Positions 5,066 to 33,816 of a stretch of DNA of 64,000 nt are shown here, piece after piece (position 1 is the stretch's first letter; each line of letters starts with the position of its first letter). The notes below the pieces were generated by a model that was given only the letters and a program-made list of their open reading frames with translations, had not been told where the DNA came from and made no database searches. The DNA is from Archangium sp. Lineage in GTDB: Bacteria > Myxococcota > Myxococcia > Myxococcales > Myxococcaceae. Made by a program: the position numbers and the translations under genes. The DNA lies in contig JAMHXF010000097.1 of NCBI GenBank assembly GCA_035910535.1, forward strand, positions 14,295 to 78,294. Reading direction: 5' to 3'.

Positions 5066-7966
5066 ATGCGCTTCGCTTGGTCGCTGGCTCTCGTCCTCGG
5101 CGTCGTGGTGTTGGCTGGCTGTGCAAACGAAAAGCAGGACCTCGGGGAGATGCGCATCACCTACGATCGCAACCGCGCTGACGGCGTGTTGACGCCTTCA
5201 GACGGCGGCGTCGTGTTCTGCGCTGCTGAAGAAGGCGAGTGCGGCTTCGGAGGGCTTCATCGCACCGCGACGCTGACGTTTCGAAACACGCAGCCGATGG
5301 ACTACCGGATGTACGAGGTGAGCGCCGACGGCTCCGAGATTCTGCTGTTCGACACGGTGCGGCTCGAAGATCGCAGCTACCTGTTCCTTCAGGATGGAAT
5401 GAGCTGGCCACCAGTCGTGAAGCTGCGCGTGCCGTACGTCGACCGCGACGCGCGCTTCATTCGCAACTCACGGCTCGAGGTGGCGTTCGACTCGATCGCC
5501 AAGGGTCGCTTCGATTCGTACGTGCAGCGTGAAGTGCGGCTGAACGGCGCGCCGCTGCAGGTCGCTGCCGACGGCACGTTCGACCTGCACACGCAGCCGT
5601 TCGACGACCGCAACCAGATCTCCGACAACGTGTTGACGTTCGCGCGGCGCCCCGACGAAGACTGCACCGTCTTCTCGAGTGCCGGGCAGCAGGTCGTCAC
5701 CGTCGGCGAGAACTCCATCGAGCTGAGGCTACGCTCGCCGCTCCGTGTCTCCGACCAGATCTACGGCTTCCGCACGGTTCGCGAGCTCACGATCACGCTG
5801 CGTTGTTCGACGGGCGACGGCGGCGTCGACGCGGGCGAGCCAGACGCAGGAACGATGTTCCTCGATGGAGGTGTCGACGACGGCGGGGGCCTCGTCGACG
5901 CTGGAGGTTTCGATGCCGGTCCTCCTGACGCAGGGACGCCTGACGCAGGGACGCTTGACGCCGGTGCGCCGGACTCAGGGACACCTGACGCCGGCCTCCC
6001 CGACGCGGGGCCCGTCGACGCTGGTGTGCCACCGCAACTGGCGTGCGCTCCTGCGGTCTACATGACGACCTCCTTCGATCTTGGCTCGACAGACACGATC
6101 TACCGTCATCGACCCAACGGCTCCGTAGAGCTCGACTTCACCGTCCCCACCACGGTGCGGGTCGTTTCGCTCAAGCGCGCCACTGGCGCGGCGATCGCGA
6201 TGCTGTCGCTGAGCACGGGCGTCGTTCAGATCTTCGATGGCAGCGGCGCGCTGGTCACCAGCTTCTCGCCGCTGTCGGGGAACGCGGGCGCCATCGCCGC
6301 CTGCGACTTCGATCTCGACGGCGACGACGACGTGCTGGTGGGCACCAAGCAGGGCGCACAGGCGCAGTACGAAGTCGCCCTCGCCGACGGCACGCAGTTG
6401 CAGCCGGTGACGGCCATCGCCAACCACACCCGCGCGCTGTCGGTTGCGTGCGGCGATGTCGAAGGTACCGGCGGTTCGCCACAGGTGATCATCGGGCCTG
6501 GGTTCAGCGCGGACAACTCGGTGCGCGTCTTCACGTGGCAAGGCGGAGTGCTGAACACCTTCCAGCCGTACGGCAGCAGCCACTGGGACGGTGTCGAGGT
6601 GGCCGTCGCCAGGCTGAGCCCCACCGGGCCCGAGCGCATCGTCACGACGCAGCGCACGTTCGCGCCGACGCAGGTAAGGGTCTTCACGAGCGGAGGCACC
6701 CTGCTCGCCAGTCGCGACGTCTTCGACGCGACGTACACGTCGGGCAGCAGCGTGAGCGCAGCGGACCTCAACGCCGACGGCCTCGATGAGATCGTCGTCT
6801 CGCAACTCACGTCGGTCCAGGTGCGCGTGCTGTCACCACAGCTCGACCCCGTGAGCGGCTGGCTCAACAACGGCTTCCTCGGGGTAGGCGCGGTGGTCAG
6901 CGCGACGCCGCGCGCAGCGCAGGGCTGCCCGACGGTGCAACCTGACGCCGGCGTGGACGCGGGCATCGACGCGGGCGTCGACGCCGGAACGCAGTCGCCA
7001 CGTGACGCAGGCGCGGGCTGCACGGCCGAGGAAGGACACCAGCTCTTCAAGCTGCCGCAGCCGTATCTCGACCTCTACACGCGCGTCGAACAACACGACG
7101 GCTACGCATGGTTCACCGAGAGCGGCGGCGGCGGGTACGCCTCGGTCTGGAAGGTGCCGCTCGACGGTGGTCAGGGCTCGCCCGTCGCCAACGCCGTGCA
7201 GGAGCCGACCGGGCTCGTCGTCAACGCCACCGACGTCTTCTTCACCGACAAGGGCAACTTCGGTCAGCTCAACGGTCGGCTCAAACACCTCCCGCTCGAT
7301 GGTGGTCAGCCGGTCGAGACGAACATGCTCGACTTCCCCATCGACGTGGCGCTGGTGTCGACCGACGCAGGCCAGGCGCTGGTGTGGATCACCGCCGGCA
7401 ACACGCGGCTCAATCGCAGCGACTTCGAAGGGACGGTGCTCGCGTCGACCAACACGCTGAGCAGCCCGACGGTCATGACCACCGACGAGACGCACGTGTA
7501 CTACGCGAACCTCAACCGCGTGGTGGAGCGCTTCCCGCTCGACTTCACCAACACCACGCAGGCCACGACGATCGCCCACGCGCAGACGGTGCCGCTCGAC
7601 CCGGTGTACGCGATGCAGGTGGTGGGTGACGATCTGTTCATTCTCCACTCTGCGGGGTCGCCGAACGCGCGCACGCGCATCACGCGCATCGCCCGCGATG
7701 GCAGCGGTGGGCCGGTGCTCGTCGCCAACGTCAACGGCGTGCAGTCGCGCGCGATGCAGATCGTGAACGGGTGGATCTACGTCGCAGAAGGGAGCTACGC
7801 GCCGGGCTGCTCGGCGTACCGAATCTGGCGTGTGCCGGTGACGTCGGTGCAGGCCTCGACCGTAGAGACGGTGGCGAACAGCCCGGTGCCGTTCAGCGAC
7901 TTCTCCATCGGGCCCGACTGGCTGGTGATGTTGCGCGACGCGGTGTGGGCCGCGCCGGCGCCGTAG
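5066..7966 (+). CDS. large secreted lipoprotein with FG-GAP/VCBS-like repeats, xDAGx linkers and a C-terminal beta-propeller-like region
   Basis: Signal peptide plus lipobox MRFAWSLALVLGVVVLAGC. Ca-binding-like FG-GAP motifs CDFDLDGDDDVLVG, GDVEGTGGSPQVIIG and ADLNADGLDEIVVS. 966 aa. Confidence 0.85.
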   Translation: MRFAWSLALVLGVVVLAGCANEKQDLGEMRITYDRNRADGVLTPSDGGVVFCAAEEGECGFGGLHRTATLTFRNTQPMDYRMYEVSADGSEILLFDTVRLEDRSYLFLQDGMSWPPVVKLRVPYVDRDARFIRNSRLEVAFDSIAKGRFDSYVQREVRLNGAPLQVAADGTFDLHTQPFDDRNQISDNVLTFARRPDEDCTVFSSAGQQVVTVGENSIELRLRSPLRVSDQIYGFRTVRELTITLRCSTGDGGVDAGEPDAGTMFLDGGVDDGGGLVDAGGFDAGPPDAGTPDAGTLDAGAPDSGTPDAGLPDAGPVDAGVPPQLACAPAVYMTTSFDLGSTDTIYRHRPNGSVELDFTVPTTVRVVSLKRATGAAIAMLSLSTGVVQIFDGSGALVTSFSPLSGNAGAIAACDFDLDGDDDVLVGTKQGAQAQYEVALADGTQLQPVTAIANHTRALSVACGDVEGTGGSPQVIIGPGFSADNSVRVFTWQGGVLNTFQPYGSSHWDGVEVAVARLSPTGPERIVTTQRTFAPTQVRVFTSGGTLLASRDVFDATYTSGSSVSAADLNADGLDEIVVSQLTSVQVRVLSPQLDPVSGWLNNGFLGVGAVVSATPRAAQGCPTVQPDAGVDAGIDAGVDAGTQSPRDAGAGCTAEEGHQLFKLPQPYLDLYTRVEQHDGYAWFTESGGGGYASVWKVPLDGGQGSPVANAVQEPTGLVVNATDVFFTDKGNFGQLNGRLKHLPLDGGQPVETNMLDFPIDVALVSTDAGQALVWITAGNTRLNRSDFEGTVLASTNTLSSPTVMTTDETHVYYANLNRVVERFPLDFTNTTQATTIAHAQTVPLDPVYAMQVVGDDLFILHSAGSPNARTRITRIARDGSGGPVLVANVNGVQSRAMQIVNGWIYVAEGSYAPGCSAYRIWRVPVTSVQASTVETVANSPVPFSDFSIGPDWLVMLRDAVWAAPAP
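5894..6028 (+). repeat. in-frame 15-nt tandem repeat (about 9 units) encoding the xDAGx linker
   Basis: The units CCTGACGCAGGGACG at 5924..5938 and 5939..5953 are identical and are flanked by degenerate copies. A second array with 12-nt units (xDAG) lies at about 6940..6987. Confidence 0.85.
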
Positions 7967-7969
7967 CGC

Positions 7970-8599
7970 TCACAAGCGAACGTCGAGCACCGCGCCCCAC
8001 TTCGTCGCCAACACGCGCAGCTTCGCCTCGGCTGCCGCGCGCGCCTCCCACGGGAGCGGCTCGTTCGGCATGTAGAACGTGCCGACGTTGGAGATCGCTC
8101 CGCGCATGGCCCAACCCAGCGAAGGCGCCGTGTGCTCGTCACCCGAGTCGCCCGCAAGAATGAGCGACTTCGGCTCCCAGCTCAGCACGCGCAGCACCGG
8201 CTCGGAGGCCTCGGCGAGCTCGAGCGAGCTCACCAACATGCCGCTCACCGTCTTCGCTTCGATGGCTTGACCCAGCTCGACCGCGCGCGCCTGCAGCGTC
8301 ACCAACTCACTGCCGACCGCTTCACCGAGCCCCGCACCGCCGACCGTCGCCTCGAGCCGACCTTCGGGCATCGTCAGAAACAGCCCGACCGTCGCCGCCT
8401 CGCCCACCGTCTTGAAGTGCAGCTTCAGCTCGTTCGGCAGCAACGTCGTCAGGTAGTGCCGCTGTGCGTCAATTTCGAGCCGTCGGAAGTGCGCGATGTA
8501 GGCCTTGGGGTTCACGCCGGCCAGGGCCGGTGTCAGCAGCTCACGCACGCGCCTCGTATGGCTTGAAACGTGCCTCATTTCAATCGCTTGCAGGCCCAA
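7970..8599 (-). CDS. hypothetical protein (209 aa)
   Basis: Long ORF with genome-typical codon bias. It is convergent with the FG-GAP gene across a 3-nt gap. No motif recognised. The start is uncertain (M1 at 8599 or M8 at 8578). Confidence 0.65.
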   Translation of the reverse strand: MGLQAIEMRHVSSHTRRVRELLTPALAGVNPKAYIAHFRRLEIDAQRHYLTTLLPNELKLHFKTVGEAATVGLFLTMPEGRLEATVGGAGLGEAVGSELVTLQARAVELGQAIEAKTVSGMLVSSLELAEASEPVLRVLSWEPKSLILAGDSGDEHTAPSLGWAMRGAISNVGTFYMPNEPLPWEARAAAEAKLRVLATKWGAVLDVRL

Positions 8600-8780
8600 C
8601 GAAATGTCACTTTTCAGAGGGTGTTGAGAGCGGGATCGCCGTGGTACTCATGGCCGCGAGTGCCGGCCCGTTCGCGGTCCTCCCGACACAAGATCCGAGG
8701 CAGCGAAAGCTCCCGGGGACGTGCTTCGTGAGAGGAAAGCAGAACAGGCCGGCACTCGTTTTTCCTATTCTCCGCGGCCC

Positions 8781-9758
8781 ATGTGGCGCTGGTCGTTTCT
8801 TCTCTTCTTCACCGGCTGCGCTGCGGGCTTCACGACGACGCTGCACGAGCCGCCGACGCCGCTGAGCATCTCCGCCGTGGTGATCCCCCCGGTGCGGCTG
8901 ACGGGCACTGAAGCGCCGGGCTGGCGTCGCTACGAGTTGGGTCAACGACAGGTCGACGTGGCGCTGCGCAGCGTCGGAGATCGCCTGGCGATCGTCGGGC
9001 CCGCGCAGGTGCAGATCACGCGGTGGGACGAGCCGGGGTGGCTCGGCAACAACGCCATTCCGGTGCTGGCGCGCGCGGCGATTCCACCGGCGCAAGCGCT
9101 GCTGCTGCGCGCCACGGCAGAGCAACGCGTCGGCTCGTCGACGCAAGAACGAGAAGACGCGGAGGGCCTCGCGAAGGGCGGCCTCGCGTCGCAAGAAACG
9201 CGGTGGTTAGTGACCGTGGAGTTGCTGCACCCCGCCTCGCGGCTGCTCGTCGCCGAGTTCGCAGGTCAGGTGGTGGTCGACCCCTTCGCGCCGGCCACCG
9301 GTGAAGAGGAGTTCGACCCCGCATGGCCGATGACGCGCCTCCTCGAGACGCTGACGAAGGAGGCGTTGGCCGTCGCGCGCAAATGGCAGATCGATCGCCG
9401 CGCCGTCGGAGACTCAGGCCTCACGCTCGCGCTCTCGCCGGCCTTCACCGCAGGCCAACCCGACGCGGCCGCCGCGCAGCCCGACGCGCTTCAAGCCGAG
9501 GTGTGGATGCAGGCGCGCGCCCGGTTTCTCTCTCCGTGGCTCGCAGACGATCAAGCCGCGAAGTTGGCGCGCCTGCCACCGGTGCTACTGGTGCTCGCCG
9601 CGCCCGGAGCCGCCGCGCTGCGCCCCGGAGATCTGATTCTGGCCATCGACGGCCAACCACCGCTCCCGGAGGTGCTCGCCCGCAAGCGCCTTCAGGGCGT
9701 GCCGGTGGAGGTGCGTGTAGGCCGGGACGGCAACGAGCGGGACGAGGTGATTCCATGA
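8781..9758 (+). CDS. lipoprotein with a C-terminal PDZ-like domain
   Basis: ATG at 8781 gives MWRWSFLLFFTGC (lipobox). The C-terminus LRPGDLILAIDGQPP...VEVRVGRDG is PDZ-like. The track ORF extends upstream to 8721. Confidence 0.75.
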   Translation: MWRWSFLLFFTGCAAGFTTTLHEPPTPLSISAVVIPPVRLTGTEAPGWRRYELGQRQVDVALRSVGDRLAIVGPAQVQITRWDEPGWLGNNAIPVLARAAIPPAQALLLRATAEQRVGSSTQEREDAEGLAKGGLASQETRWLVTVELLHPASRLLVAEFAGQVVVDPFAPATGEEEFDPAWPMTRLLETLTKEALAVARKWQIDRRAVGDSGLTLALSPAFTAGQPDAAAAQPDALQAEVWMQARARFLSPWLADDQAAKLARLPPVLLVLAAPGAAALRPGDLILAIDGQPPLPEVLARKRLQGVPVEVRVGRDGNERDEVIP

Positions 9759-9777
9759 AGGCTATGGTGACGCGCTG

Positions 9778-11088
9778 ATGGTTGAGACCACCGAGTCGGT
9801 GACGATTCCCGGGGACAGCATCACGCGGGTCCCCATTCGCGAGTGGACGGTGGAGGTCATCGGCGGTCCCGACAAGGGCAAGTCGATCTCCGCGTTGTCA
9901 GGGTTGATCCGCGTCGGCAGCGACGAGAGCAACGACCTGGTGCTCACCGACAACACGGTGAGCCGCAAGCACCTCGAGATCGAGCGCACGTCGCGGGGCC
10001 TGTTGCTGCGTGACTTGAGCTCGCGCAACGGCACCTTCTTGAGCGGCCGGCTCACGCTGCAGGCCTTCGTCGAACCGGGCGACAAGATCGATCTCGGCAA
10101 GACGCGGCTCACCGTGAAGCAGAAGACCCGTGAGACCGAGGTCGAGCTCGACGGTGGAGAGCAGTTCGGCGATCTCGTCGGCGTCTCTGAAGCGATGCGC
10201 ATCGTCTTCGCCGAGCTGCGCCGCGTGACCCGCGAAGACGTGACGTTGCTCATCGAAGGCGAGACCGGCACCGGCAAAGAGCTCGCGGCGCGCGCGGTGC
10301 ACGCGTACTCGGTGCGGCGCTTCGGCCCGTTCCGCGTGGTCGACTGCGCGATGTTGTCGGAGCAGACCGCCGAGCGGGAGCTCTTCGGCCCCGACGGCGC
10401 GTTCACCACGGCGCAGGGCGGCATCATCTTCTTCGATGAAGTCGGCGAGCTGCCCGCCGCCGTGCAGCCCAAGCTGCTGCGCATTCTCGAGACGCGTGAG
10501 CTCGCTGCGGGCAAGAAGCTCGACGCGCGCATCATCGCGGCGACCTCGCGCAACCTCGCTGAAGAAGTTCAGCAGCGCCGCTTCAGGCAAGACCTGTTCT
10601 TCCGCATCGCCATCGCGCGCGTTCGATTGCCGCCGCTGCGCACGAGGAAGATCGACATCCCGCTCCTCGCCAAGCACCTGGTGAAGGGCCTCTCGACTCC
10701 CATCGATCTCTCGCCGCAGATGTTGTCGCTGCTCGAGGGCTACGACTGGCCGGGCAACGTGCGGGAGCTGCGCAACGTGCTCGAGCGCGGCGCGTTGATG
10801 CAGGCCACCGGCAACTCCTCGTGGCTCGAGCTGCTGGTGCCCGCTGACCGCCGACCGGATCGCAGCTCGTTGCTCGAGGTGGCGAGCAAGCTGCCGTACC
10901 ACGAGGCGAAAGATCGGGTTCAGAATGACTTCGAGCGCCACTACTTCGCCGAGGTGATGAAGCAGTGTGGCTACGACATCAAGCTGGCCGAAGAGCGCAC
11001 GGGCCTCTCGATGCAGTCGCTCTACCGTCTGCTCAAGAAGAGCGGTCTGCGCCTCAAGGATCTCAAGAACGCCGACGGCCTCGGCTGA
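9778..11088 (+). CDS. FHA-domain / AAA+ / Fis-HTH enhancer-binding protein (sigma54-activator family)
   Basis: FHA: IRVGSDESNDLVLTDNTVSRKHLEIE...RDLSSRNGTFLSG. Walker A: GETGTGKE. Walker B: GIIFFDEVGELP. Arg finger: ARIIAATSRNL. The C-terminal HTH is present. The sigma54-contact loop reads GAFTTA. Confidence 0.9.
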   Translation: MVETTESVTIPGDSITRVPIREWTVEVIGGPDKGKSISALSGLIRVGSDESNDLVLTDNTVSRKHLEIERTSRGLLLRDLSSRNGTFLSGRLTLQAFVEPGDKIDLGKTRLTVKQKTRETEVELDGGEQFGDLVGVSEAMRIVFAELRRVTREDVTLLIEGETGTGKELAARAVHAYSVRRFGPFRVVDCAMLSEQTAERELFGPDGAFTTAQGGIIFFDEVGELPAAVQPKLLRILETRELAAGKKLDARIIAATSRNLAEEVQQRRFRQDLFFRIAIARVRLPPLRTRKIDIPLLAKHLVKGLSTPIDLSPQMLSLLEGYDWPGNVRELRNVLERGALMQATGNSSWLELLVPADRRPDRSSLLEVASKLPYHEAKDRVQNDFERHYFAEVMKQCGYDIKLAEERTGLSMQSLYRLLKKSGLRLKDLKNADGLG

Positions 11089-11138
11089 GTCAGCTCGCCG
11101 GGCGCCGAACGTCAGCAGCCACCAGGAGGAGGACCACC

Positions 11139-11375
11139 ATGGCCATCTTGAACATCACCTACCAGGGCTTGTCGGCTGACTACGGCTTCGAGCTCGACGC
11201 CAACCTGTCTGACGCCGACGTGCGCCGCGTGGCCGTGGAGATCGTCCGCGCCGGCAACGTGCCCGGCTTGAACCTGCCGCACCTGGGCGACGATGCCTTC
11301 GCGGGCTTCGTGGTCGACCGCCTCCAGGGTGGCCAGCGCATCTACCTCCGCCCGAAGGTGCCGTTCGGTGCGTGA
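11139..11375 (+). CDS. 78-aa small protein, candidate beta-grasp / ubiquitin-like or carrier protein (C-terminus ...RPKVPFGA)
   Basis: Strong RBS AGGAGGAGGA ends 5 nt before the ATG at 11139. Its TGA stop (11373..11375) is overlapped by the GTG start of the ThiF-like gene. The strand-helix-strand pattern (ILNITYQG / ADYGFELD / SDADVRRVAVEIVRAG / FVVDRL / RIYLRP) was judged by eye only. Confidence 0.6.
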   Translation: MAILNITYQGLSADYGFELDANLSDADVRRVAVEIVRAGNVPGLNLPHLGDDAFAGFVVDRLQGGQRIYLRPKVPFGA

Positions 11376-11949
11376 GCAGCGAGTCGTCTTCTGCGGCGTC
11401 GGGGCGCTCGGCTCCAGCGCCGCAGTGCTGTGCCGCAACCTCGACGCCACGCTGGTCTTCGTCGACTTCGATCGCGTGGAATCGAAGAACCTGCTCTCGC
11501 AGGCCTACGTGAAGCAGTCGGTCGGCAAGAACAAGGCAGAGGCGCTCAAGGCGCAGTTGCTGAACTTTCACGGCGTGAAGGCCGAGTCGTTCGGCGTACG
11601 GCTCACCACCGACAACGTGGCGACGCTGTGCGCGAAGGCCTCGTTGCTCGTCGACTGCTTCGACAACGCAGCGTCACGACAGCTGCTCTCTGAGTATTCG
11701 CGCAAGGCGAACGTGCCGTTGCTGCACGCCGCCGTGAGCGGCGACGGGACGTTCGGCCTCGTTCGCTGGGACGAGCGCTTCAAGCCCGACGCAGAAGACG
11801 TCGCAGGTCAGGCCACGTGTGAAGGCGGCGAGCACCTGCCGCTCATCGGGTTGTTGAGCGCCACCGTCGCGCGCGCGATTCAGGACTTCCTGAAGGCCGG
11901 CGTGCAGCGCGATTCGATGGTCGGCCTCGCGGCCGTCACGCCGACGTAG
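11368..11949 (+). CDS. minimal ThiF/MoeB/E1-like adenylyltransferase (about 193 aa)
   Basis: VVFCGVGALGSSAAVLC (GxGxxG), VDFDRVESKNLLSQ (ThiF DxDxVexSNLxRQ with R replaced by S), GKNKAEA, VDCFDNAASRQLL. The GTG at 11368 lies within GTGCGTGA, overlapping the upstream stop. The track's ATG at 11293 would overlap the small gene by 83 nt. Confidence 0.8.
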   Translation: MREQRVVFCGVGALGSSAAVLCRNLDATLVFVDFDRVESKNLLSQAYVKQSVGKNKAEALKAQLLNFHGVKAESFGVRLTTDNVATLCAKASLLVDCFDNAASRQLLSEYSRKANVPLLHAAVSGDGTFGLVRWDERFKPDAEDVAGQATCEGGEHLPLIGLLSATVARAIQDFLKAGVQRDSMVGLAAVTPT

Positions 11950-12435
11950 CTAACCGCCGACGTTGGCCCAGAAGTCGTCGCAGCCACCGCTGCCGTTCTT
12001 CAGCGCGCCTTCTTCGAACTCGTATGGGCTCGAGCAGTCGACGACCGAGCAGACCTTCTGCCTCGGCCATGACAGCTCGATGTGCCCAAGCGGACGAATG
12101 AGGCGGTAACCGACCATGCCCGCGTCGCCCGGCGCCGACACGCGCCCCAACCCGCCGCCCGGGTATGAGTCGGCGCGACCCGGCGCCTGGAAGATGAGCT
12201 CGACGCCTTGATCGACGTCACCCGCGTACGGCGGGTCGAAGAAGAAGCTCACCGACGAGAACGTCGAGTTGCCGCCCGTGCAGGTGACTTGAACTGCGCC
12301 GTTGCCGTGGGAGTTGTCGTCGTAGCTGCACAGACACTCACCGAGGCCACGGCCCGCCCGTTCTGAAGCCGTGAAGACGATCTCGTCGGCGCGTGGGCAG
12401 CCGAACAACGCGAGACACAGCCACGCCCACCTCAC
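11950..12435 (-). CDS. Cys-rich lipoprotein (about 161 aa)
   Basis: GTG at 12435 gives VRWAWLCLALFGC (lipobox). GTGA overlaps the stop of the VWA gene. Eight further Cys. The upstream part of the track ORF (to 12615) overlaps the VWA gene and I reject it. Confidence 0.7.
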   Translation of the reverse strand: MRWAWLCLALFGCPRADEIVFTASERAGRGLGECLCSYDDNSHGNGAVQVTCTGGNSTFSSVSFFFDPPYAGDVDQGVELIFQAPGRADSYPGGGLGRVSAPGDAGMVGYRLIRPLGHIELSWPRQKVCSVVDCSSPYEFEEGALKNGSGGCDDFWANVGG

Positions 12436-13829
12436 GACGGCACCAACTGCGGAGCGATCTTCTCGAGCTCGGACAAGCTCGTCACCGTCACCACCTGCGT
12501 CACGGCGCGCGAGTAGTTCGTCATCTCGCTGTCGCCGAAGCCCCAGTTCTGCTTCGGCTCGGTACAGATCCACACCACGCGCCTGGCCTTTCTTTTCAGA
12601 TCTTCGAGAGCCCACACGTTGGCGGAGTTGAAGTTGTTACGCCCGTCTCCGATGACGAAGACCGTCGTCTTGCGGCTCACGGAGCCGAGGTACGACTTCG
12701 CGAACGTCGCCAACGTATGGCCGTAGTTCGAGTTCGACGACATCGAGATGACGTCGCCCGACAACGCAGCCTCGAGCGCCGCTTCCGGCTTCGTGCCCTT
12801 GAAGTGCTTCGTCACCTCGCCGAGCTCCGAGACGAAGATGAAGCTGCGCACGCGATTGAAGAGCGACTGCAGACACCACGTGAAAATCAGCATCAGCCGC
12901 GACGCGTTTCGTACCGAGTCGCTCACGTCACACAGCACGATGACGTCAGGGCGCTGCGGCCTCCGCGTGCGGAACTGCGGCACCATCGGTACGCCGCCCG
13001 AGGTGAGGTTCTTTCGCAGCGTGCGACGCGGGTTGAGCTGCCCTTTCCGTTTGCTGCGCTGCCGACGAATGAGGCGCGCCTTCAGCTTCTCGGCGAGCGC
13101 GCGCACCGAGCGCTGCGCGATCTCGACCTCTTGCCGCGAGAGCGTATGCAACGCCTTGTCGTCGACGCCGGCGGTGGCCTTCTTGAGCCTCGCGTTCGAC
13201 TGTCGCTGCACTTCGGCGCGCGCCTCTTCTTCGATGCGCCGCAGCGCGCTGCCGAGGTGCTGACTGACGACCTCGATGCCACGCCCCGACATGCCGCGCG
13301 CCGCGAGCTCCCGGCCGATGCTCTCGAGGTCGCTGCGCATTGACTCGGCGCCGGCCGCGCTGGCGAGCCGACGACTGTAGAAGCCGGTCTGCAGTGCGTT
13401 CTGAATTCTTGAGAAGTCGAGCTGCAGCGACGCCTGACGGAAGATCTGCGCCAGGCGCGCGCGATCGCCCGACATCGCGGCCTCGGTGAGCGGGCTCAAT
13501 TGCCCCGCGAGGCGCTCCATCATCCAGACGATCATCTTCCGCTCGTCTTCGCCCAGCAGCCCCTCTTCTTCGATGCGCTTCATGAGCGACTGCTCGATGT
13601 TGGCCAGCGTTCGCGACGCACCCGAGAAATAGAAGTCGAAGGCCTTGTCGAACACCGCCGCGTCTTGAGCGCGCTTGCAGAGCGTCGCCTTCAACGCGGC
13701 GCGGGTGACGTCGCGCTCCTCGAGGCCGATCTCCGCGAGCGCCTGCACGGCGTCTTTTGCTTCGCTCACGGCGACCTTCAAGCCGTTCTGGCGGAGCACT
13801 TCGACGAACTCGACGACGCGCGCCTCCAT
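12432..13829 (-). CDS. CoxE-like von Willebrand factor A (VWA) domain protein
   Basis: 465 aa. The helical N-terminus MEARVVEFVEVLRQNGLKVAVSEAKDA is typical of CoxE-type VWA proteins. The MIDAS motif is in VIVLCDVSDSV. No MoxR/CoxD ATPase lies adjacent. Confidence 0.85.
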   Translation of the reverse strand: MEARVVEFVEVLRQNGLKVAVSEAKDAVQALAEIGLEERDVTRAALKATLCKRAQDAAVFDKAFDFYFSGASRTLANIEQSLMKRIEEEGLLGEDERKMIVWMMERLAGQLSPLTEAAMSGDRARLAQIFRQASLQLDFSRIQNALQTGFYSRRLASAAGAESMRSDLESIGRELAARGMSGRGIEVVSQHLGSALRRIEEEARAEVQRQSNARLKKATAGVDDKALHTLSRQEVEIAQRSVRALAEKLKARLIRRQRSKRKGQLNPRRTLRKNLTSGGVPMVPQFRTRRPQRPDVIVLCDVSDSVRNASRLMLIFTWCLQSLFNRVRSFIFVSELGEVTKHFKGTKPEAALEAALSGDVISMSSNSNYGHTLATFAKSYLGSVSRKTTVFVIGDGRNNFNSANVWALEDLKRKARRVVWICTEPKQNWGFGDSEMTNYSRAVTQVVTVTSLSELEKIAPQLVPS

Positions 13830-13832
13830 GAT

Positions 13833-14501
13833 TCAGCCTCGCTTCAAGATTCCGTTTTTCGGAAACGACTTGATGCTCTTACCGGCCGCCAGCGGGAGCA
13901 CACGAATCCACTGAACGGGGCCGGTGTCGGTCTTCATCACTCCGAAGGTCTCGTCTTTCACGAAGCCGAGGCCGGCGAACGCTGAAGCCACGGGCGTGTT
14001 CCACACACCGAAACCGGCCTGCGATTCGTGGCGCATCGCGCGGTGCACCTTCGCGAGGAAGCCGTCTCTCTTCACGAACTCGAGCGGTTTCGCCGTCGTG
14101 CCGAAGGGGTTCGCTTCGTCGTACACGCGGTACCGCGCGCCCTCGAACTCCTCGATGTTCGCGAACGACAACACCGAGCCGCTCCTGGGGATCTGCGCCG
14201 ACCAGAAGACCATTCGCGCCAGCGGCATCAGCAAGTCGCTCGTCCACGCTTCGGGCGGATCTTCTTCACCGTCTTCCACGCCGATTCGCAGAACGAACTC
14301 GATGCCGAAGCCGCTGCGCTTCGGGTCTTTCGTTTCTTTGCCCGCGAACTCAGAGAGGCCGGTGGTGACGACCTCCCAGTGCTTCTTGACGCGTCGCCAA
14401 CCGATGAAGCGAAGCGGATCGCGCAGCGGAACGACATCGGGCTGAAACGTCATGCCAGTGAACTCGCCTGACTCGTTCAACAGCTCGAAGACGTTGCTCA
14501 T
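13833..14501 (-). CDS. SUFU (suppressor-of-fused) domain protein, paralog 2
   Basis: WEVVTTGLSEFAGKETKDPKRSGFGIEFVLRIGVEDGEEDPPEAWTSDLLMPLARMVFWS aligns by eye with human SUFU WHYISFGLSDLYG...GPSGFGFELTFRLKRETGESAPPTWPAELMQGLARYVFQS. Confidence 0.85.
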   Translation of the reverse strand: MSNVFELLNESGEFTGMTFQPDVVPLRDPLRFIGWRRVKKHWEVVTTGLSEFAGKETKDPKRSGFGIEFVLRIGVEDGEEDPPEAWTSDLLMPLARMVFWSAQIPRSGSVLSFANIEEFEGARYRVYDEANPFGTTAKPLEFVKRDGFLAKVHRAMRHESQAGFGVWNTPVASAFAGLGFVKDETFGVMKTDTGPVQWIRVLPLAAGKSIKSFPKNGILKRG

Positions 14502-15196
14502 GGGTTTCCGCGGTCGAAAACTCCGTCAGCGGGGAACGTTTCGATCGTCGTGTCGCCACGGAGCGGCAGACAACGCAGCCACTGCACCGGCCCGTTCGCG
14601 GTCTGCATAACGCCGAACGTCGGATCATTCACGAAGCCAAGGCCCGCCACCTGCCACGCGAGCGCCGTGTTCCAGATACCGAAGCCAGGCTGCGGCGGAG
14701 CTTCATCGTGACCCAACCGCGCTGAACGCAGCCCTTTGTGAACGCGCGCGAGAAAGCCGTCGTCATTGGCGAAGTCCAACGGTCGCGCAGGCGTTGCGAA
14801 CGGATTGACTTCGTCGAACACGCGGTACTCGTTGCCGCCGAAGGTCTTCGACTGATCGAACTTCAGCACCGTGCCGTGCGCCGGCACCTGCGACGACCAG
14901 AACACCATGCGTCCGAGCGGTTGAAAGAGCTTCGTCGTCCACCCGTCGGGCGGCTCGTTCTCGCCGTTGCGCGCGGTGACTCGAATCACGAACTCGACAC
15001 CGAAGCCGCTTCGATTCGGGTCTTTCGTTTCCTTCGTCGCGAATTCAGAAAAGCCGGTGGTGATGATTTCCCAGACGTTGTCGACGCGACGCCACCCGAT
15101 GTACCGGAGCGGATCGCTGATGGGCGGAAGTCCCGGAGTGAACGCAATGCCGGTGAATTCGCCGCTCGGGTTCAACAGCTCGAGAACGTTGCTCAT
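14498..15196 (-). CDS. SUFU (suppressor-of-fused) domain protein, paralog 1
   Basis: Roughly 60% identical by eye to the downstream paralog. It carries the same GFSEF...SGFGVEFVIR...PPDGW...LGRMVFWS core. ATGA overlaps the next gene. Confidence 0.85.
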   Translation of the reverse strand: MSNVLELLNPSGEFTGIAFTPGLPPISDPLRYIGWRRVDNVWEIITTGFSEFATKETKDPNRSGFGVEFVIRVTARNGENEPPDGWTTKLFQPLGRMVFWSSQVPAHGTVLKFDQSKTFGGNEYRVFDEVNPFATPARPLDFANDDGFLARVHKGLRSARLGHDEAPPQPGFGIWNTALAWQVAGLGFVNDPTFGVMQTANGPVQWLRCLPLRGDTTIETFPADGVFDRGNP

Positions 15197-15369
15197 GTCA
15201 GACCTCCAAATAGCGCCAGCGGATCGACCGAGTTCGGCAAGTCGATGACCTCACCATCGCAGAAGTTCGATGATCGCCCAGTCACTGTTCTTCAACTTCG
15301 TGCGTTCATCGAGAAGAAGCGACCGCGCACCTTCGAGGCACAGCGGCATTCCGCGCTTCGCCGACCTGC

Positions 15370-16626
15370 TCACCGCGTGAAGGCCATCACGGCCTCGATG
15401 TGATGCGTCTGTGGAAACAAGTCGAACAGCTGCAACGCGATGGGGTGAAAGCCGTGCTCCCCGAGATCCTTCGCGTCGCGCGCGAGGCTCGTCGGATCGC
15501 ACGCGACGTACACCACACGCGAAACCAACAACCCGTTCGCCCACGAGCCGACGCCCGGCGCACCCGACCGCGGAGGGTCGACGAGCAGGCGATCGAACCG
15601 CTCGCGCTCATTCACGAGGCCTTTGGCAATTTTCTCTGAATCGCCCTGCACGAAGCGCACGTTGCTCACGCCGTGCTTCAACGCCGCGTTCTGCGCGAGC
15701 GCGACTGACAGCGGGAACGACTCAACCGCCACCACCTGGTCAGCATGCGACGCGAGCCGGAACGTGAAGTTGCCGTTGCCTGAATACAGCTCGAGCACGC
15801 GCTCACTGCCGTGCACGTCGAGCAGCTCGAGGCTCTGTGAGACGAGTCGGCGGTTCACCTCGGCGTTCGCCTGCGCGAAGCCGTCAGGGCGGTGCAGCAC
15901 GCCTTCTTCATCGAGCACCGGCTTGCCGAGCAGCTCCACCGCGCCCTTGCCGTCTGCGGGGTGAACAATCGCACCGTCGATCAGCCCTTCACGAAGCGCG
16001 GCGGTCAACGCGTCACGATGCCGAGGCCGAATCTGCGCCTTCGCATGAAGGCTGATCGCGACGCGCCCTTCGCACTCGAGCAGTCGAACTTCCTCCAGCT
16101 CTTTCAACGTCGCCGCGCCCAACGCTGTCGCGAGTCGTCCAGGGAAATTGGTCAACGCAGGCGTCAACGCAGGGCACGACTTCACCGCGACGCGCTCGTG
16201 CGATTTGCGCCCGTGAAAACCCAGCGCGTCTTTGACCGGGTGCAGCACCGCGCGACGCCGGTACCCCACGGCCTGCGGCGACGGCACCGTCGGCAACAAC
16301 GCGTACGCGTCGCGCGCGATGCCGCCGACGTGCTCGAGCGCAGAGACGACGATCTCCGTCTTCTGTCGGAGCTGCTCGTCTTCCTGGAGGTGCATCCAAT
16401 CGCAGCCGCCGCAGCTCGAGGCCACGGGGCAGACGGGCGCTCGTCGTGACGCGCTCGGTTCGAGGACGTCGAGCACTTCGCCGCGCAGCGCCTTGCCCTG
16501 CTCCGTCACTTCGACGAGCACGCGCTCACCCGGCAACGCGCCCGCAATGAAAACGGCGCGGCCTTCGTGAGGGGCCACGCCGTCACCTGACTTCGACAAC
16601 CGCTCGACTCGCAGCTCCAGCTTCAC
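15370..16626 (-). CDS. TRAM-domain, Fe-S cluster-containing RNA (uracil-C5)-methyltransferase (RlmD/RumA/TrmA family)
   Basis: N-terminal TRAM segment (VERLSKSGDGVA), Cys cluster CPVASSCGGCDWMHL, SAM-methyltransferase motifs LELYSGNGNF and LLVDPPRSGA, and catalytic YVACDP. Confidence 0.9.
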   Translation of the reverse strand: MKLELRVERLSKSGDGVAPHEGRAVFIAGALPGERVLVEVTEQGKALRGEVLDVLEPSASRRAPVCPVASSCGGCDWMHLQEDEQLRQKTEIVVSALEHVGGIARDAYALLPTVPSPQAVGYRRRAVLHPVKDALGFHGRKSHERVAVKSCPALTPALTNFPGRLATALGAATLKELEEVRLLECEGRVAISLHAKAQIRPRHRDALTAALREGLIDGAIVHPADGKGAVELLGKPVLDEEGVLHRPDGFAQANAEVNRRLVSQSLELLDVHGSERVLELYSGNGNFTFRLASHADQVVAVESFPLSVALAQNAALKHGVSNVRFVQGDSEKIAKGLVNERERFDRLLVDPPRSGAPGVGSWANGLLVSRVVYVACDPTSLARDAKDLGEHGFHPIALQLFDLFPQTHHIEAVMAFTR

Positions 16627-23886: not shown

Positions 23887-26800
23887 TCACGAATCGAAGC
23901 CGGCCCTGAGGGTGTGCCCTGCGCTCGAGAGAGCGAGATCGCCGCGGGCATTGAGTTCAGCGACGGCAGCGACAATTCCATTCCTGAAGCGAGCCGTCGC
24001 AGCGCCGAGGCCGAAAGCATCGCGGAGGAGCGCTACGAGTTCGTCTTCATTCAGCCCAGCGTTCAGTTGGAGCACAGCGCGGACCCCCGCGACGTATTCG
24101 CTCGGCGCGATCAACTCGGCGTTCGAATCCGCGTCGCGCCGATTCCTCGGCATGACCCGGCGCCCAGCAAGCGCCCACCAGGGATCTCGGTGTTCAATGC
24201 CGCTCGCATTGCGGAAGTCACGTAACGCGCTGGCGAGTCGCTCAACGATCCGAGCCCCAGCCCGCCGATGCCCGAAGGCATCCATGAGACGATCTCTGAG
24301 TACCTCGTCATGAACTGGCCCCTCGACCTCAAGAACACTGCGACACAACCCTGCGATCGTCGATTGTGTTGCATCAACCAGCTCGCCCTGTTGCGGTGAC
24401 AACGCGGCTGTCCGATACGGCTCGAAAATCGGCGCAGCCAGCGTACGTCTGCTGGGCGAAGTCCCCTTCTGAACAGGAGCAACCGGCGGTGGACCAACGC
24501 TCTCGCTCGATTCGCCGACCAGTCGGGCAACGTTTGCGCCTGCAGCGGGCGTTGCCTTGAATAGCCGTGCCTTCTGCCTCGATTCTTCGATCAGCTTCAG
24601 CAACCGCTCCGTTTGTTTCTTGCGGTCATGCCACCAGTCGGTGCTCCAGAGCCTGTGCAGTTCCCAACCGAGACCGCGCAGCACTTCCTCTCGGAGCCGG
24701 TCCCGATCGCGTGCCGACTCCGCAGAGTGGTACGCGACGCCATCGCACTCAATGCCACACACGAAGCGACCTGAAACCTCCGTATCCGTGACACCGAAGT
24801 CGATGCGGTAACCAGAAACACCAACCTGAGGAACCAAGTCGATACCGTGAGCCGCAAGCGCGGTCAGAACCTCTTGTTCGAAAGGAGATTCCGTCTGCGC
24901 CAGAGCCATTACGAGCGGGCCCGCGACGAGCTCACCGGTCTCTGCGTACTTCAAGAAATCCCTGAGAAGCACAGCACCACGCATCTGCTCACCAACGACC
25001 ATGTCGTCGGCACGCATCGAAGAAAACACACGCATTTGCTCACGTGCACGTGTCGCGAGAACGTTCAACCGACGCCAGCCCGATTGGCCGCTCAGCGGAC
25101 CAAGATTGTACCGAATCTTGCCGTCGAGACCTTTCCCGTAGGTAACGCTCAAGAACACAACGTCCCGCTCGTCGCCTTGAATGCTTTCAAGGTTCTTCAC
25201 GAAGAACGGCTCGGGCTTGTCGAGAGCGAGGAACTCGTCGAGTTGTGGGTTCGTGCGTCGCTCGCCCTCCAGCAGATCCTGAATACGAAGCTGCTGCGGC
25301 CGAGAGAACGTTCCGACGCAAAGTGATCTGTTCGGATGTTCGCGCGCGTGCCGGACAACCGCAGCAACCACCGCCGCGGCTTCTTTTGTGTTGGTCCCCT
25401 TCCCTTCGTACTGAGCACCAGCGACGTGTTCGAAACTCAGGCCAAACCTGCTCACGTTGCGATCAACGCTCGGAAAAGTGAGTAGAGAAGATTCGTAGAA
25501 GTTCTGATTCGAGTACGCGATCAACGACTCATGTCGGCTCCGGTAGTGCCATCGAAGCTGCGCGCCATAGAGTCCAGCCGCCTGGGCCAATTCGAGAATG
25601 CTCTCGAGATCTTCAAACAACGGTTCTCCATCTTCGTCTTCTTTGACCTCGATCTCCCCAAGTTGAGCCGCAAAGAAGTTCGTCGGCGGGAGTTGCTTGG
25701 GGTCGCCGACGACGACCAACTGCTGCCCCCGGGCAATCGAACCAAGAGCATCCTCACAAGTGAGCTGGGATGCCTCGTCGAAGATGACGATGTCGAACTG
25801 ATGCTTGGTATCGAGTGTCTGCGCGACCGTCATGGGACTCATCAAGAAGCACGGCTTGATGGCGCGGACCGCGTGGAACCCACGCTGAACCAACTGCCGA
25901 ACAGGTTGATGGCCCCGCATGCGCGACATCTGATCGCGGAGAAACTTTGATTCGCCTGCTGCGGAAAGCAACTGCTCTTGAGTCCGTCGGCGCAGCCGGG
26001 TGGCGACCGCGCGCTTGTTACTTTCCAATGCTTGCTTATCCAGCACGCAGAACTCATTCACTTGCGCAGAGTGCGCGCCCCCTTCGAACCGCCCAAGGAG
26101 CGGGGCCTGTGACTCGACGTCATCGATCCATACCTCGAGGAAACGACGCTCAAACGCAGCGCCAAGATCCGCCCACGCGAGGTCACCCGACACCGCCGCT
26201 TCGACAAGAGACCGTGCAGAGGTGGCGACGGCCTTGGAGAGTGCATCCTGATGGTTCTGCATCTCTCGCCATCGCTCGCGACTGCCCTCGAGCGCTTCAA
26301 TTTGTTCATTCAACTGAACGAACGTTGACCTTGCGAAAAAGGTAGCGGGCCAGCCACCAGCCTCTTGGATGCTGGACCAAAGAGCACGCGCCTCGGTGAC
26401 CTTGACGGCCAACTGCTGAAGCGAATCCACGTTCGGCGCCGGTGTTTCTGCGACAGAGAATACCGAGGGAGAGAGCGACAGCCTGGCGGCTGTATCTCTG
26501 AACGAGTTGCCCCAACGCACCCAGTCCATCAAAGCAGTCCAGTCACTGTCAGCACCGCGCCAAAGCCGTCCGAAAAACCGTGCCGACGCATCACTTCCAT
26601 TGAGCGACACTCTCTCGGCCCTCGCGCGGAGCAGAGTGGAGACCCGCTGTCCCGCATCTAACGCGCCTCGCCAAGCTGACTCAGACATTGAGGCCTTCAA
26701 CTGGCGTCGAGCAGCCCGCCAAGTGCCGCTAAGCCAGGCCCAGATACTGCGACCACGTTCGATGACGATGGTCACTGCAGTCTGTAATTCCTCAGGTCGA

Positions 26801-28611: not shown

Positions 28612-28713
28612 TGGAGCGTTCTCGGAAAGAGATGTTCTAAACCCGAGAATACGCACGAACCGAGCCAGCAGAGACAACAGAAAAAATCTGGAGGATAAAG
28701 ACTTCGAACCGCC

Positions 28714-31700: not shown

Positions 31701-31743
31701 GGAACGAGTAGTTGCTCTTGCACCACAACGGCACGCCGCTCAT
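28714..31743 (-). CDS. dnaE2: error-prone DNA polymerase DnaE2 (ImuC)
   Basis: PHP N-terminus (MSGVPLWCKSNYSFLEGAS) and Pol III alpha core. The ATG at 31743 overlaps the imuB stop (ATGA). The track ORF starts 54 nt further upstream. Confidence 0.93.
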   Translation of the reverse strand: MSGVPLWCKSNYSFLEGASFPDELVEAAYELGCPAIAITDRDGVYGVVRAYEKAKALGIKLIVGSEVTLDDGATLVLLAMTRRGYANLCQLLTLGRMRCEKGRSEVSRAEVAAHAEDLIALWTLDGPHEALQPAFGDRLYGLIARHFLPEDVDTEAAQRARAKALGVPLVAAPEVLYHHSSKRRLQDVVTCIRHQRSLPEAGRLLKANDSHALSRSLFEGRYGDCLELVRRSEEVAARCTFSMSELRYRYPTEKLPGGTSTTQWLEQLVFEGAARRGVVNDAMTAQLKKELQLIETLDYGGYFLTMRELVEFCQANDIICQGRGSAASSAVCFCLGITAVDPVKMGFLFERFLSLERAEPPDIDLDIEHERREEVIQHLYEKHGRTHAAMVANVTSYRARSAVREVGKALGVAQTELDRYAKLLHHYDSPDGRYAKDVGLDTSAQSFELLMSICQELEGFPRHLSIHPGGFILGHDPISTLVPVENATMEGRTVIQWSKDDVETLGLFKVDLLALGSLTHLHKSFELIAKHRGREISLATIPEDDPLTYALIQKADTIGVFQIESRAQMSMLPRLKPKSYYDLVVQVSIVRPGPITGGMVHPYLRRRNGAEPVTYPHPCLEPVLSRTLGVPLFQEQVMRIAIVGANYSPGEADQLRRDMAAWKRNGKLEGHHDKFVNGMIARGIAPDFAERVFAQVRGFGDYGFPESHAASFALISYAGSYLKAHYPVEFTCGLLNSLPMGFYSPATLVEDAKRHGVQVLSIDLKSSEWNCTLEPTDGKHDYALRMGLRFVKGLNEGDATRLRDVRDSQSVTELVRRSGVQARSVTLLAEAGALQSIEPSRRVALWQAQGLHGGSTPLAVDSEPQLSFPGLSVQQSISWDYSRTAHSTRGHPVGPVRRRLHAQGLKSAEEARQLQHGQYVRAAGVVICRQRPGTASGVTFMTLEDETGLLNLVVWRDVFEAYSVLARTRTFLGVEGKVQKQDEVLHVLAERFFEPNAALEAPIESRDFH

Positions 31744-33248: not shown

Positions 33249-33816
33249 GGCACACCTCGTTCGTGCTCCACGTCGGCGCGTGACGCTTGTCTTTGAGCGC
33301 GCGCACCGTGAGCGTGAATTCACCAGGCGCCGACCCTGGCGCCGCCGCCCACGCCCGCATCGAGATCAGCGAATCCAACGAGCTGTCGTGCTCGCTCGCC
33401 TCGGTCAAGAAGAGCACCGCTGCGTCGTGCTTCTGCGCGAGGCCCAACATTCGCGAGAGCAACGGCGTCTGTACGCGGTGCCGCGCTGGCAGGTCGATCA
33501 CCACCAACCCGAACCCTCCGTGACGAACCAACATCTCACCGGCCCTGGGCAGCTCGACGGCCGGCACGCGCACCACCGCCACCGCCTTCAAGTCGACGCC
33601 GCTGGCTTCGACGTCGGGCGGGTAGAAGATCGAGTCGGGCCGAGAGACCCACGCCACCGGTTCTCCCGCGAGCTGCGCTTCACGAACTTTCAAGACGCCC
33701 GCCGTCAGCGCCGAAGGCCCCGAGAGCTCGCTGAGCGAAGCGCGCAGCGACTGCAGCGAAAACGGGTCTCCCGAGTCGCGGTGCTTCGTGCGAAGTGCTG
33801 AAAGAACGGTCGCCAT
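33226..33816 (-). CDS. imuA: ImuA-like (RecA/SulA-fold) SOS mutagenesis protein
   Basis: ATG at 33816 gives MATVLSAL.... LSELSGPSALTAGVL...AQLAGEPVAWV...GGFGLVVIDLP...LLSRMLGLAQKHDAAVLFLT resembles ImuA. It is the first gene after the LexA box. Confidence 0.65.
   Translation of the reverse strand: MATVLSALRTKHRDSGDPFSLQSLRASLSELSGPSALTAGVLKVREAQLAGEPVAWVSRPDSIFYPPDVEASGVDLKAVAVVRVPAVELPRAGEMLVRHGGFGLVVIDLPARHRVQTPLLSRMLGLAQKHDAAVLFLTEASEHDSSLDSLISMRAWAAAPGSAPGEFTLTVRALKDKRHAPTWSTNEVCRGPVGLR

Follow-up and report, generated by a model that had tools for sequence, protein, structure and literature searches.

A ubiquitin-like protein and a trimmed E1-type enzyme of Archangium appear to belong to a five-gene cassette common to soil myxobacteria and very large phages

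The DNA considered here is a 64,000-nt stretch of an Archangium sp. contig (JAMHXF010000097.1), referred to throughout as the window, and our subject is a pair of overlapping genes on its plus strand that encode a small ubiquitin-like protein (Ubl) and a short enzyme of the E1/ThiF type (E1). An earlier note on this DNA had singled out the pair as a possible minimal activation module with no known partner pathway. The pair is laid out as follows:

Positions 11124 to 11133, plus strand: Shine-Dalgarno-like AGGAGGAGGA, read from the sequence, ending 5 nt before the ATG of the small open reading frame (ORF).
Positions 11139 to 11375, plus strand: gene for the 78-aa ubiquitin-like (beta-grasp-type) protein, with its ATG at 11139; the invariant ...RPKVPFG runs to Gly77 and is followed by Ala78.
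Positions 11368 to 11949, plus strand: gene for a 193-aa trimmed adenylyltransferase of the E1/ThiF family, with a GTG start and an 8-nt overlap with the stop end of the Ubl gene.

The small ORF is indeed led by a probable ribosome-binding site, as the earlier note had it, with AGGAGGAGGA seen ahead of the ATG, and its product reads ...YLRPKVPFGA up to a TGA at 11373-11375. The overlap of this stop codon with the start of the ThiF-family gene was likewise read correctly, the GTG at 11368 sitting within GGTGCGTGA, and a database protein (P0121) is 100% identical to the 193-aa reading. At 90% identity the Ubl family falls into 630 clusters, and at 50% identity it has 269 representatives. The ratio of nonsynonymous to synonymous substitution rates (dN/dS) has a median pairwise value of 0.26 among 36 sequences of the window's clade, which comprises 41 loci from metagenome-assembled genomes (MAGs) of Myxococcaceae, many of them labelled Archangium sp., and is 0.07-0.23 against individual relatives. 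The Ubl gene is under purifying selection and, given the cluster counts and the median dN/dS, the small ORF is beyond chance and taken to be translated; both it and the gene for the ThiF-like enzyme are genuine and conserved.

An AlphaFold2 (AF2) model of the Ubl, built on 62 sequences, has a predicted local distance difference test score (pLDDT) of 94, a predicted template-modelling score (pTM) of 0.82 and the order beta-beta-alpha-beta-beta, with a helix (residues 25-38) between two pairs of strands (2-8 and 11-19; 57-62 and 67-72) and, at the end, a flexible tail of lower confidence. The topology agrees with the beta-grasp fold that had been proposed for the small protein, but the matches of the model to PDB structures in Foldseek fall short of significance (best E-value 0.4, template-modelling (TM) scores 0.36-0.52), and on the model we call the protein beta-grasp-like. 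The leading weak matches are all of the beta-grasp class, namely the Ubl domain of UBLCP1, the B1 domain of protein L/G, a chain of the ESX-5 secretion complex, PB1 and a RAS-binding domain. Profile searches split the pair, since the E1 matches the Pfam ThiF model but the Ubl has no family match in Pfam (including ThiS, Prok_Ub and similar models), NCBIfam, PADLOC or PHROGs. In the family alignment Gly77 is invariant and lies within a nearly invariant R-P-K-(V/T)-P-F-G. The residues that follow this glycine in the tabulated genome and metagenome loci are A, AA, AAA, AGV, AR, AH, AC, C, S, VI, GGPA or others of up to 16 aa; the tail is a single Ala in 32 of 42 loci, and two tabulated loci lack it altogether. 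Within the window's clade it still varies (A, AA, AAA, AGV, AL, AS, AV, C or none). Among the 150 representatives listed at least 17 end precisely at the glycine, and some metagenome representatives run on for more than 100 aa, of which some are possibly read-through or mis-called ORFs. Because the residues beyond the glycine vary or are absent, the functional C-terminus is most likely Gly77 and not the Gly-Ala that the earlier note took for the carrier tail. Such an invariant glycine with a variable tail resembles a ubiquitin-like precursor whose mature end would be the glycine.

The partner protein appears to be a trimmed adenylating enzyme of the E1/ThiF type, an identity that had already been proposed and that agrees with its match to Pfam ThiF (PF00899; 76.7 bits, cut-off 28.1, residues 2-125). 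It scores under every NCBIfam equivalog cut-off for ThiF, MoeB, MoeZ, UbaA and TcdA, the best being 78.7 bits against 159. In an alignment of 19 family members the segments GxGALGS, DFDRVESKN, NKA, DxxDN, RWDERF and TCEGG are invariant. The motifs GVGALGS, DFDRVESKNL and DCFDNAASR, noticed before, are all found in the 193-aa sequence, and the nucleotide- and magnesium-binding motifs of the superfamily (GVGALGS, NKAEA and DCFDN) are invariant or nearly so in the 19 members and align with those of MoeB. MoeB is also the best match of the family profile in the PDB (E-value 8e-13), the alignment spanning MoeB residues 33-205 only, and the E1 ends about 25 residues past the helix that follows the crossover loop. 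The single cysteine reported earlier is a miscount, since the protein has five (in VFCGVG, VLCRNL, TLCAKA, VDCFDN and ATCEGG); across the 19 members C151 of ATCEGG alone is invariant, and C9 is nearly so. Cys151 aligns with the cysteine of ...ALTCVEAG... in the crossover region of MoeB, which we take to be MoeB Cys187, the equivalent of ThiF Cys184. Judged by this alignment, the E1 consists of an adenylation core and a crossover-region cysteine.

The pair appears, from gene order and family profiles, to represent two of the five genes of a ubiquitin-like cassette common to soil myxobacteria and very large phages. On contigs with distant Ubl homologues (from a Terriglobia MAG and from Joint Genome Institute (JGI) metagenomes), the operon order is a gene for a VWA protein of about 600 aa (VWA600), one for a protein of about 303 aa (p303), one for a Prok-JAB protein of about 120 aa (JAB), and then the Ubl and E1 genes. 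We traced these genes with home-made profiles of the five proteins in a scan of species-representative genomes that gave 198 loci, the best 80 of which were analysed. A contiguous VWA600-p303-JAB-Ubl-E1 cassette is present in Polyangiales, Haliangiales, Kofleriaceae, Nannocystaceae, Labilithrix, some Myxococcaceae and Terriglobia. Unrelated genes separate the VWA-p303-JAB half from Ubl-E1, which follows 4.5-9.4 kb downstream, in Myxococcus (M. xanthus included) and Corallococcus, and one Archangium contig has a distance of more than 10 kb between the two halves. Pyxidicoccus and some others show no partner gene within 10 kb on each side of the pair. The Ubl gene adjoins that of the E1 in 85 of 86 distinct genome and metagenome loci (the remaining one, L075, is without a detectable E1), and JAB adjoins Ubl in contiguous cassettes. 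None of the approximately 150 loci examined places the pair in a thiamine, molybdenum cofactor (Moco) or siderophore cluster, so that the earlier view of a pair outside such standard clusters holds. The companion claim of a minimal module with no partners does not, since the pair makes up two-fifths of a cassette that includes a JAB, and the other three genes are found on another contig in an assembly of the window's clade.

The three partner proteins differ in how much can be read from them. The active-site motif of JAB (E...HxHx7Sx2D) is invariant. VWA600 is highly conserved (73% mean column identity) and carries its VWA domain, with the DxSxS motif of the metal-ion-dependent adhesion site (MIDAS), at the C-terminus. 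Its N-terminal 380 residues have no family match in Pfam, NCBIfam, PADLOC or PHROGs, where the generic VWA domain alone was found, and matches of its profile to PDB sequences are confined to VWA domains. A TROVE/Ro60-like reading of VWA600 was rejected, there being no TROVE match. For p303 the same four collections give no family match, and its profile finds noise only among PDB sequences (the MacA coiled coil, E-value about 3). It has a single invariant cysteine, in DxG[IVLM]C[LI] near the C-terminus, and in its model (pLDDT 87) the N-terminal half is beta-rich and leads into a long helix, after which a beta-meander, the cysteine and another helix make up the C-terminal part. The DxGICL motif and this order of helix, beta-meander, cysteine and helix suggested an E2, a reading that neither Foldseek nor hhalign supports and that we leave as speculation. 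Two metagenome contigs have genes for a DUF5996 protein and a 109-aa zf-UBP protein directly 3' of the contiguous cassette (L002 8843-10080; L004 2275-3512). The zf-UBP zinc finger binds free ubiquitin C-termini in eukaryotes and, by analogy, this neighbour, seen in L002 and L004 only, could hint at recognition of the Ubl tail.

The same genes are carried by phages. Homologues of the RPKTPFG subgroup of the Ubl occur in phage-like contexts, and a scan of IMG/VR gave 60 viral contigs, 13.6-619 kb in length and most of them longer than 100 kb. The five genes keep the same order in about 58 of these 60, often with other genes interspersed, and no sixth gene is conserved with the cassette in the IMG/VR loci. 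The phage flanks that were scanned encode homing endonucleases of the HNH and GIY-YIG types, and strong PHROG matches were also found there. A GenBank record, KX853510 (Virus Rctr197k, 197 kb; L150), likewise has all five genes in order, the cassette (5088-8917 and 10749-11897 of that locus) being immediately preceded by a tRNA array of about 35 genes. In the deposited record the p303 homologue has no annotated coding sequence, a minus-strand ORF being given over it instead, and the VWA gene appears as a misc_feature only. The Ubl model has a single significant match in the BFVD database (TM 0.80, 38% identity), probably the 166-aa Ubl of KX853510, to judge by the identical length, the accession being unmapped.

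In the window the pair is separated from its presumed partners, the cassette VWA, p303 and JAB proteins giving no tblastn match in the 64 kb. Its neighbours are these:

Positions 8721 to 9758, plus strand: gene for a 345-aa protein with a weak PDZ-like C-terminus (weak PDZ matches only), 20 nt upstream of the activator gene.
Positions 9778 to 11088, plus strand: gene for an activator with FHA and sigma-54-interaction AAA+ domains and a weak HTH_8 (Pfam FHA, Yop-YscD_cpl, Sigma54_activat, AAA_lid_14).
Positions 11950 to 12615: poorly conserved 221-aa ORF between the E1 stop and the VWA_CoxE/SUFU operon.
Positions 12432 to 15196, minus strand: convergent operon whose products are a VWA_CoxE protein of 465 aa and, from tandem genes, SUFU-domain proteins of 222 and 232 aa.

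The activator gene ends at 11088, which puts the pair 50 nt 3' of it, as first described, and this order is kept throughout the clade: the pair lies directly 3' of an FHA/sigma-54 activator (enhancer-binding protein, EBP) in 41 of 41 loci, so that the co-occurrence of the trio, raised earlier as a question for Myxococcota, is found in one clade of Myxococcaceae. In those clade loci that extend far enough, VWA600, p303 and JAB are absent within 10 kb on either side. One clade assembly, JAEUJP01, has the EBP-Ubl-E1 locus (L047) and, on another contig, genes for VWA600, a 172-aa DUF2007 protein and p303 as well as the start of JAB. With the halves on two contigs, the cassette would be split rather than reduced in at least one clade member and, by extrapolation from this one related assembly, VWA-p303-JAB would lie elsewhere in the genome of the window. 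The earlier statement that neither JAB nor E2 is present thus holds within the 64 kb but, as regards JAB, probably fails for the genome as a whole. The 172-aa protein between VWA and p303 (L151 1466-1984) combines DUF2007 with a Cys-rich, zinc-ribbon-like segment and a C-terminal hydrophobic helix.

The window is otherwise ordinary high-GC chromosome (65.5% G+C), with genes for GroEL, glutaredoxin, thiolase, ribosomal protein S1, SRP54, DnaE2/ImuB and the like. Thiamine, Moco, cysteine-synthesis and rhodanese domains were indeed missing, as the earlier note had observed, from the 28 window proteins scanned with Pfam. GroEL (805-2445) lies about 9 kb upstream of the trio, and about 3 kb upstream of it in L005 (5235-7187), which argues for a conserved chromosomal neighbourhood and not an obvious mobile island. 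Elsewhere in the window, a gene for a DnaE2-like error-prone Pol III alpha subunit (1027 aa) adjoins one for an ImuB-like Y-family protein (527 aa) in what looks like a mutasome cassette (28714-33323, minus strand), and two ORFs are very long (4082 aa at 49899-62147 and 1596 aa at 23887-28677, both on the minus strand).

How the pair is controlled can be judged in part from its surroundings. Scanning for GG-N10-GC with at least 9 of 12 consensus matches, we found no credible sigma-54 promoter ahead of the activator gene or in the 50 nt between it and the Ubl gene in the window, nor ahead of the Ubl or VWA600 gene in 37 related loci, and the region 8400-12700 has no sigma-70-like promoter or intrinsic terminator, hence none between the activator and Ubl genes. 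These results give no support to sigma-54-dependent control or to the phospho-threonine-responsive control put forward earlier; with no sigma-54 promoter, co-transcription with the activator gene becomes likelier, and activator, Ubl and E1 probably form one transcription unit. Control of the pair by phospho-threonine signalling is a guess. The sigma-54 contact motif of the activator (residues ~205-215) reads GAFTTA where the canonical form is GAFTGA. In at least 12 clade loci the pair is followed, after about 4.5-8 kb, by another FHA/sigma-54 activator gene, divergent from the first and on the opposite strand, and in L005 a 1217-aa Ser/Thr kinase-STAND protein is encoded between that activator and the pair (10812-16190); no second activator copy is present in the first 22 kb of the window. 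The gene for the 345-aa PDZ-like protein precedes the activator gene in 25 of 41 clade loci, and its link to the pair is uncertain. On the other side, the E1 stop abuts the convergent ORF and the VWA_CoxE/SUFU genes as had been claimed, but this contact is limited to close relatives, VWA_CoxE lying 3' of the pair in 12 of 41 clade loci and SUFU in 3 of 41. A functional link between the pair and this operon was rejected on these counts and because its VWA protein has no tblastn homology to VWA600.

The reading that we favour, and that we hold to be probable, though well short of certain, is that the Ubl serves as modifier and the E1 as activating enzyme in a ubiquitin-like system of five components, the cassette of which has been split in the window's lineage. 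The 78-aa Ubl would be a short precursor whose variable tail, here one Ala, is cut off, presumably by JAB, to expose Gly77. The Rossmann-type ATP site of the E1 would then bind the ...RPKVPFG tail and adenylate Gly77, as its family membership and intact magnesium/ATP motifs suggest, and the invariant Cys151 of the crossover loop would accept the Ubl as a thioester. From there, more speculatively, the Ubl could be handed to the invariant cysteine of p303 or to a target held by the VWA protein, and JAB might also undo the modification. In the lineage of the window Ubl-E1 would have been relocated behind the FHA/sigma-54 activator gene and is probably co-transcribed with it. The pair would most likely be the activation module of a Ubl conjugation system.

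Several observations weigh against such a system. Its main weakness is that no E2/UBC fold was detected in the cassette by Foldseek, hhalign or Pfam: the p303 model has no significant match in the PDB, its weak matches being OB/S1-like and none of them an E2, hhalign of p303 with five canonical E2s gives a probability of 0.2%, and the Pfam Prok-E2 families and DUF6527 find no match in the cassette proteins. As for the Ubl, neither Pfam nor Foldseek matches it significantly, by sequence or by structure, to ThiS, MoaD or ubiquitin, and its conserved tail ends in Phe-Gly (PFG), with one glycine and not Gly-Gly. The E1 lacks a counterpart of MoeB residues 1-32, where the Arg finger presumably resides, as well as the C-terminal part that holds the Zn/CxxC region, and has no CxxC motif. 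It also lacks the Arg of NLxRQ, whose replacement by Ser the earlier note had spotted; the window protein reads NLLSQ, and Ser or Ala occupies the position family-wide. Given these three losses, the catalytic competence of the E1 is only inferred, although Arg36 and Lys40, which are invariant in this family and lie in the motif of the lost Arg, may compensate. The split, too, is open to question. JAEUJP01 is a MAG, so that this case depends on correct binning, and its second contig ends inside the JAB gene. Moreover, no p303 from two near-complete single-contig clade genomes (9.0 and 9.4 Mb) is among the 120 matches listed out of 532, which leaves it uncertain that the clade as a whole has kept the other three genes.

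Because no E2 fold was detected, a sulfur-carrier role is a serious rival, albeit one that we consider unlikely. Here the E1 would adenylate the Ubl to yield a C-terminal thiocarboxylate that supplies sulfur for a cofactor, a metabolite or tRNA thiolation, and JAB would do no more than process the precursor. ThiS/ThiF, MoaD/MoeB, CysO/MoeZ and TtuB/TtuC are pairs of this kind, and the Mec+ JAB processes the CysO precursor. The top curated models for the E1 are ThiF and MoeB and its top PDB match is MoeB, with whose crossover-region cysteine the invariant cysteine aligns; in ThiF the equivalent cysteine becomes linked to ThiS through an acyl-disulfide. Neither Foldseek nor hhalign revealed an E2-like protein, the N-terminal half of p303 weakly resembles OB/S1 RNA-binding folds, and the Rctr197k cassette sits beside a large tRNA array. 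However, in the approximately 150 loci the cassette has no conserved companion among rhodanese, cysteine desulfurase, PP-loop ATPase, CysM, ThiG and MoaE, what is conserved in phages is limited to the five cassette genes, the E1 scores far under the equivalog cut-offs, and the tail is Phe-Gly and not Gly-Gly. It also counts against a sulfur carrier that we know of no role for a VWA protein and a conserved-Cys protein in sulfur-relay systems.

It is also conceivable, though we regard it as distinctly improbable, that Ubl and E1 act by themselves, without JAB, p303 and VWA, either in E2-independent modification like that of archaeal SAMP/UbaA or in a new function connected with the FHA activator, for example the modification of this protein or of its targets. 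The stability of EBP-Ubl-E1 in 41 of 41 loci would fit, as would the absence of the other cassette genes within 10 kb (in loci extending that far) and throughout the 64-kb window, the lack of a p303 from the two 9-Mb single-contig clade genomes among the matches listed, and a tail that is mostly a single Ala (32 of 42 loci). Yet VWA600-p303-JAB is present on another contig of one clade assembly, and the halves are already 4.5-9.4 kb apart in Myxococcus and Corallococcus and more than 10 kb apart in the Archangium contig, so that separation need not mean loss; the variability past Gly77 within the clade fits a tail that is removed. We find it hardly credible that the small protein is instead the substrate of a C-terminal peptide modification, in the manner of ribosomally synthesized and post-translationally modified peptides, with the ThiF-like enzyme adenylating or modifying its C-terminus to give a secreted or toxic compound. 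MccB acts on the MccA peptide in this way, and ThiF-like enzymes are known to act on ribosomal peptides; MccB is among the PDB matches of the E1, and the C-terminal motif of the Ubl is very strongly conserved. That match is weak, however, and confined to the first ~60 residues, the start of the nucleotide-binding region, and the E1 begins at the Rossmann fold without an N-terminal peptide-clamp domain of the MccB type. Moreover, the 78 aa of the small protein form a well-folded domain with conservation along the full length, unlike a leader with a variable core or the short unstructured substrate of an MccB-type enzyme, and no transporter, immunity or tailoring genes are conserved nearby.

Returning to the five-component system, a bolder version of it, which we offer tentatively and think rather less than likely, is that VWA600-p303-JAB-Ubl-E1 is a hitherto unrecognised conjugation family that uses p303, with its OB-like half and Cys domain, as a non-UBC transfer protein and the VWA protein as a scaffold, is borne by jumbo phages and domesticated in Myxococcota, and has had its activation half rewired into an FHA/sigma-54 operon in one lineage. 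Cap2/Cap3, Bil and Bub have recently been shown to conjugate proteins in phage defence, each building the logic of E1, E2 and deubiquitinase differently, whereas the present cassette is encoded by phages themselves and by social soil bacteria, including the genetically tractable Myxococcus xanthus. If it conjugates, it would widen the known chemistry of Ubl transfer and provide a phage-side counterpart to the Bil systems of the host; if it relays sulfur, phages would possess a thiocarboxylate pathway of a new kind. With its apparent split, the window offers a natural experiment on which parts must stay together.

How does the cassette compare with known systems? A JAB/MPN+ isopeptidase occurs together with a VWA protein in ubiquitin handling by eukaryotic BRISC/BRCA1-A (MERIT40) and by the proteasome lid (Rpn10), but that likeness is an analogy of domain content (JAB and VWA) only. 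With ThiS/ThiF, MoaD/MoeB and the short 'family 2' ThiF proteins (TIGR02354, ~200 aa) the E1 shares the size and motifs of the adenylation core and the aligned crossover cysteine, and as in ThiS/ThiF and MoaD/MoeB a small carrier gene lies immediately upstream in translational coupling. In contrast to those pairs, the E1 reaches only 69-79 bits against cut-offs of 152-275, the carrier has no Gly-Gly, the Arg of NLxRQ is gone, and the partners are JAB, VWA and p303 without thi or moa neighbours, no thiS/thiG or moaD/moaE context being found in the window or in related loci. Closer in organization are the Bil (bacterial ISG15-like) operons, which encode the Ubl BilA, the E2 BilB, the JAB BilC and the E1 BilD (PMC11601603). 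Like them, the cassette has separate Ubl, JAB/JAMM and E1 genes in a small mobile unit, a conserved C-terminal Gly on the Ubl and a setting of conflict between phage and bacterium. Unlike them, it lacks a recognisable UBC-type E2 and has p303 (OB-like half, long helix, Cys domain) and the ~600-aa VWA protein instead, its E1 is only ~190 aa (13 bits with the PADLOC BilD model), and it is found in phages as well as in bacteria.

An E1-type adenylation domain with a JAB partner is also what the cassette has in common with the Bub/'6E'/DUF6527 systems and with Cap2-Cap3 of type II CBASS, the cyclic-oligonucleotide-based anti-phage signalling systems (PMC11601603, PMC11601596). The PADLOC E1-E2 (Cap2-like) models match its adenylation core weakly, with up to 55.6 bits, but the cassette has no E1-E2 or JAB-E1 fusion, no DUF6527 and no CD-NTase, and its Ubl is a single minimal beta-grasp that ends in PFG. 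The sporadically distributed operons (types 6a-6e) that Iyer, Burroughs and Aravind described in 2006, without mention of Myxococcus, bring together JAB, an enzyme resembling E1 and a novel beta-grasp protein of small size whose C-terminal Gly is conserved (PMC1779556). The cassette has this combination too, but a VWA or p303-like protein is missing from all five of those types, in which the E1 mostly forms a fusion with JAB or E2 or else an E2-like protein can be recognised (PMC1779556). Pfam, NCBIfam, PADLOC and PHROGs assign the five genes to no named system, the E1, JAB and VWA proteins matching generic domain models only, and we found no description of the cassette in the literature searched, the coverage of which was partial, so that an earlier description is possible. 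Its nearest known counterparts, the Bil, Bub and Cap2/Cap3 systems together with operon types 6a-6e, have the logic of Ubl, E1 and JAB in common with it, and what sets the cassette apart is its VWA and p303 partners, a very short unfused E1, the PFG terminus and carriage by phages.

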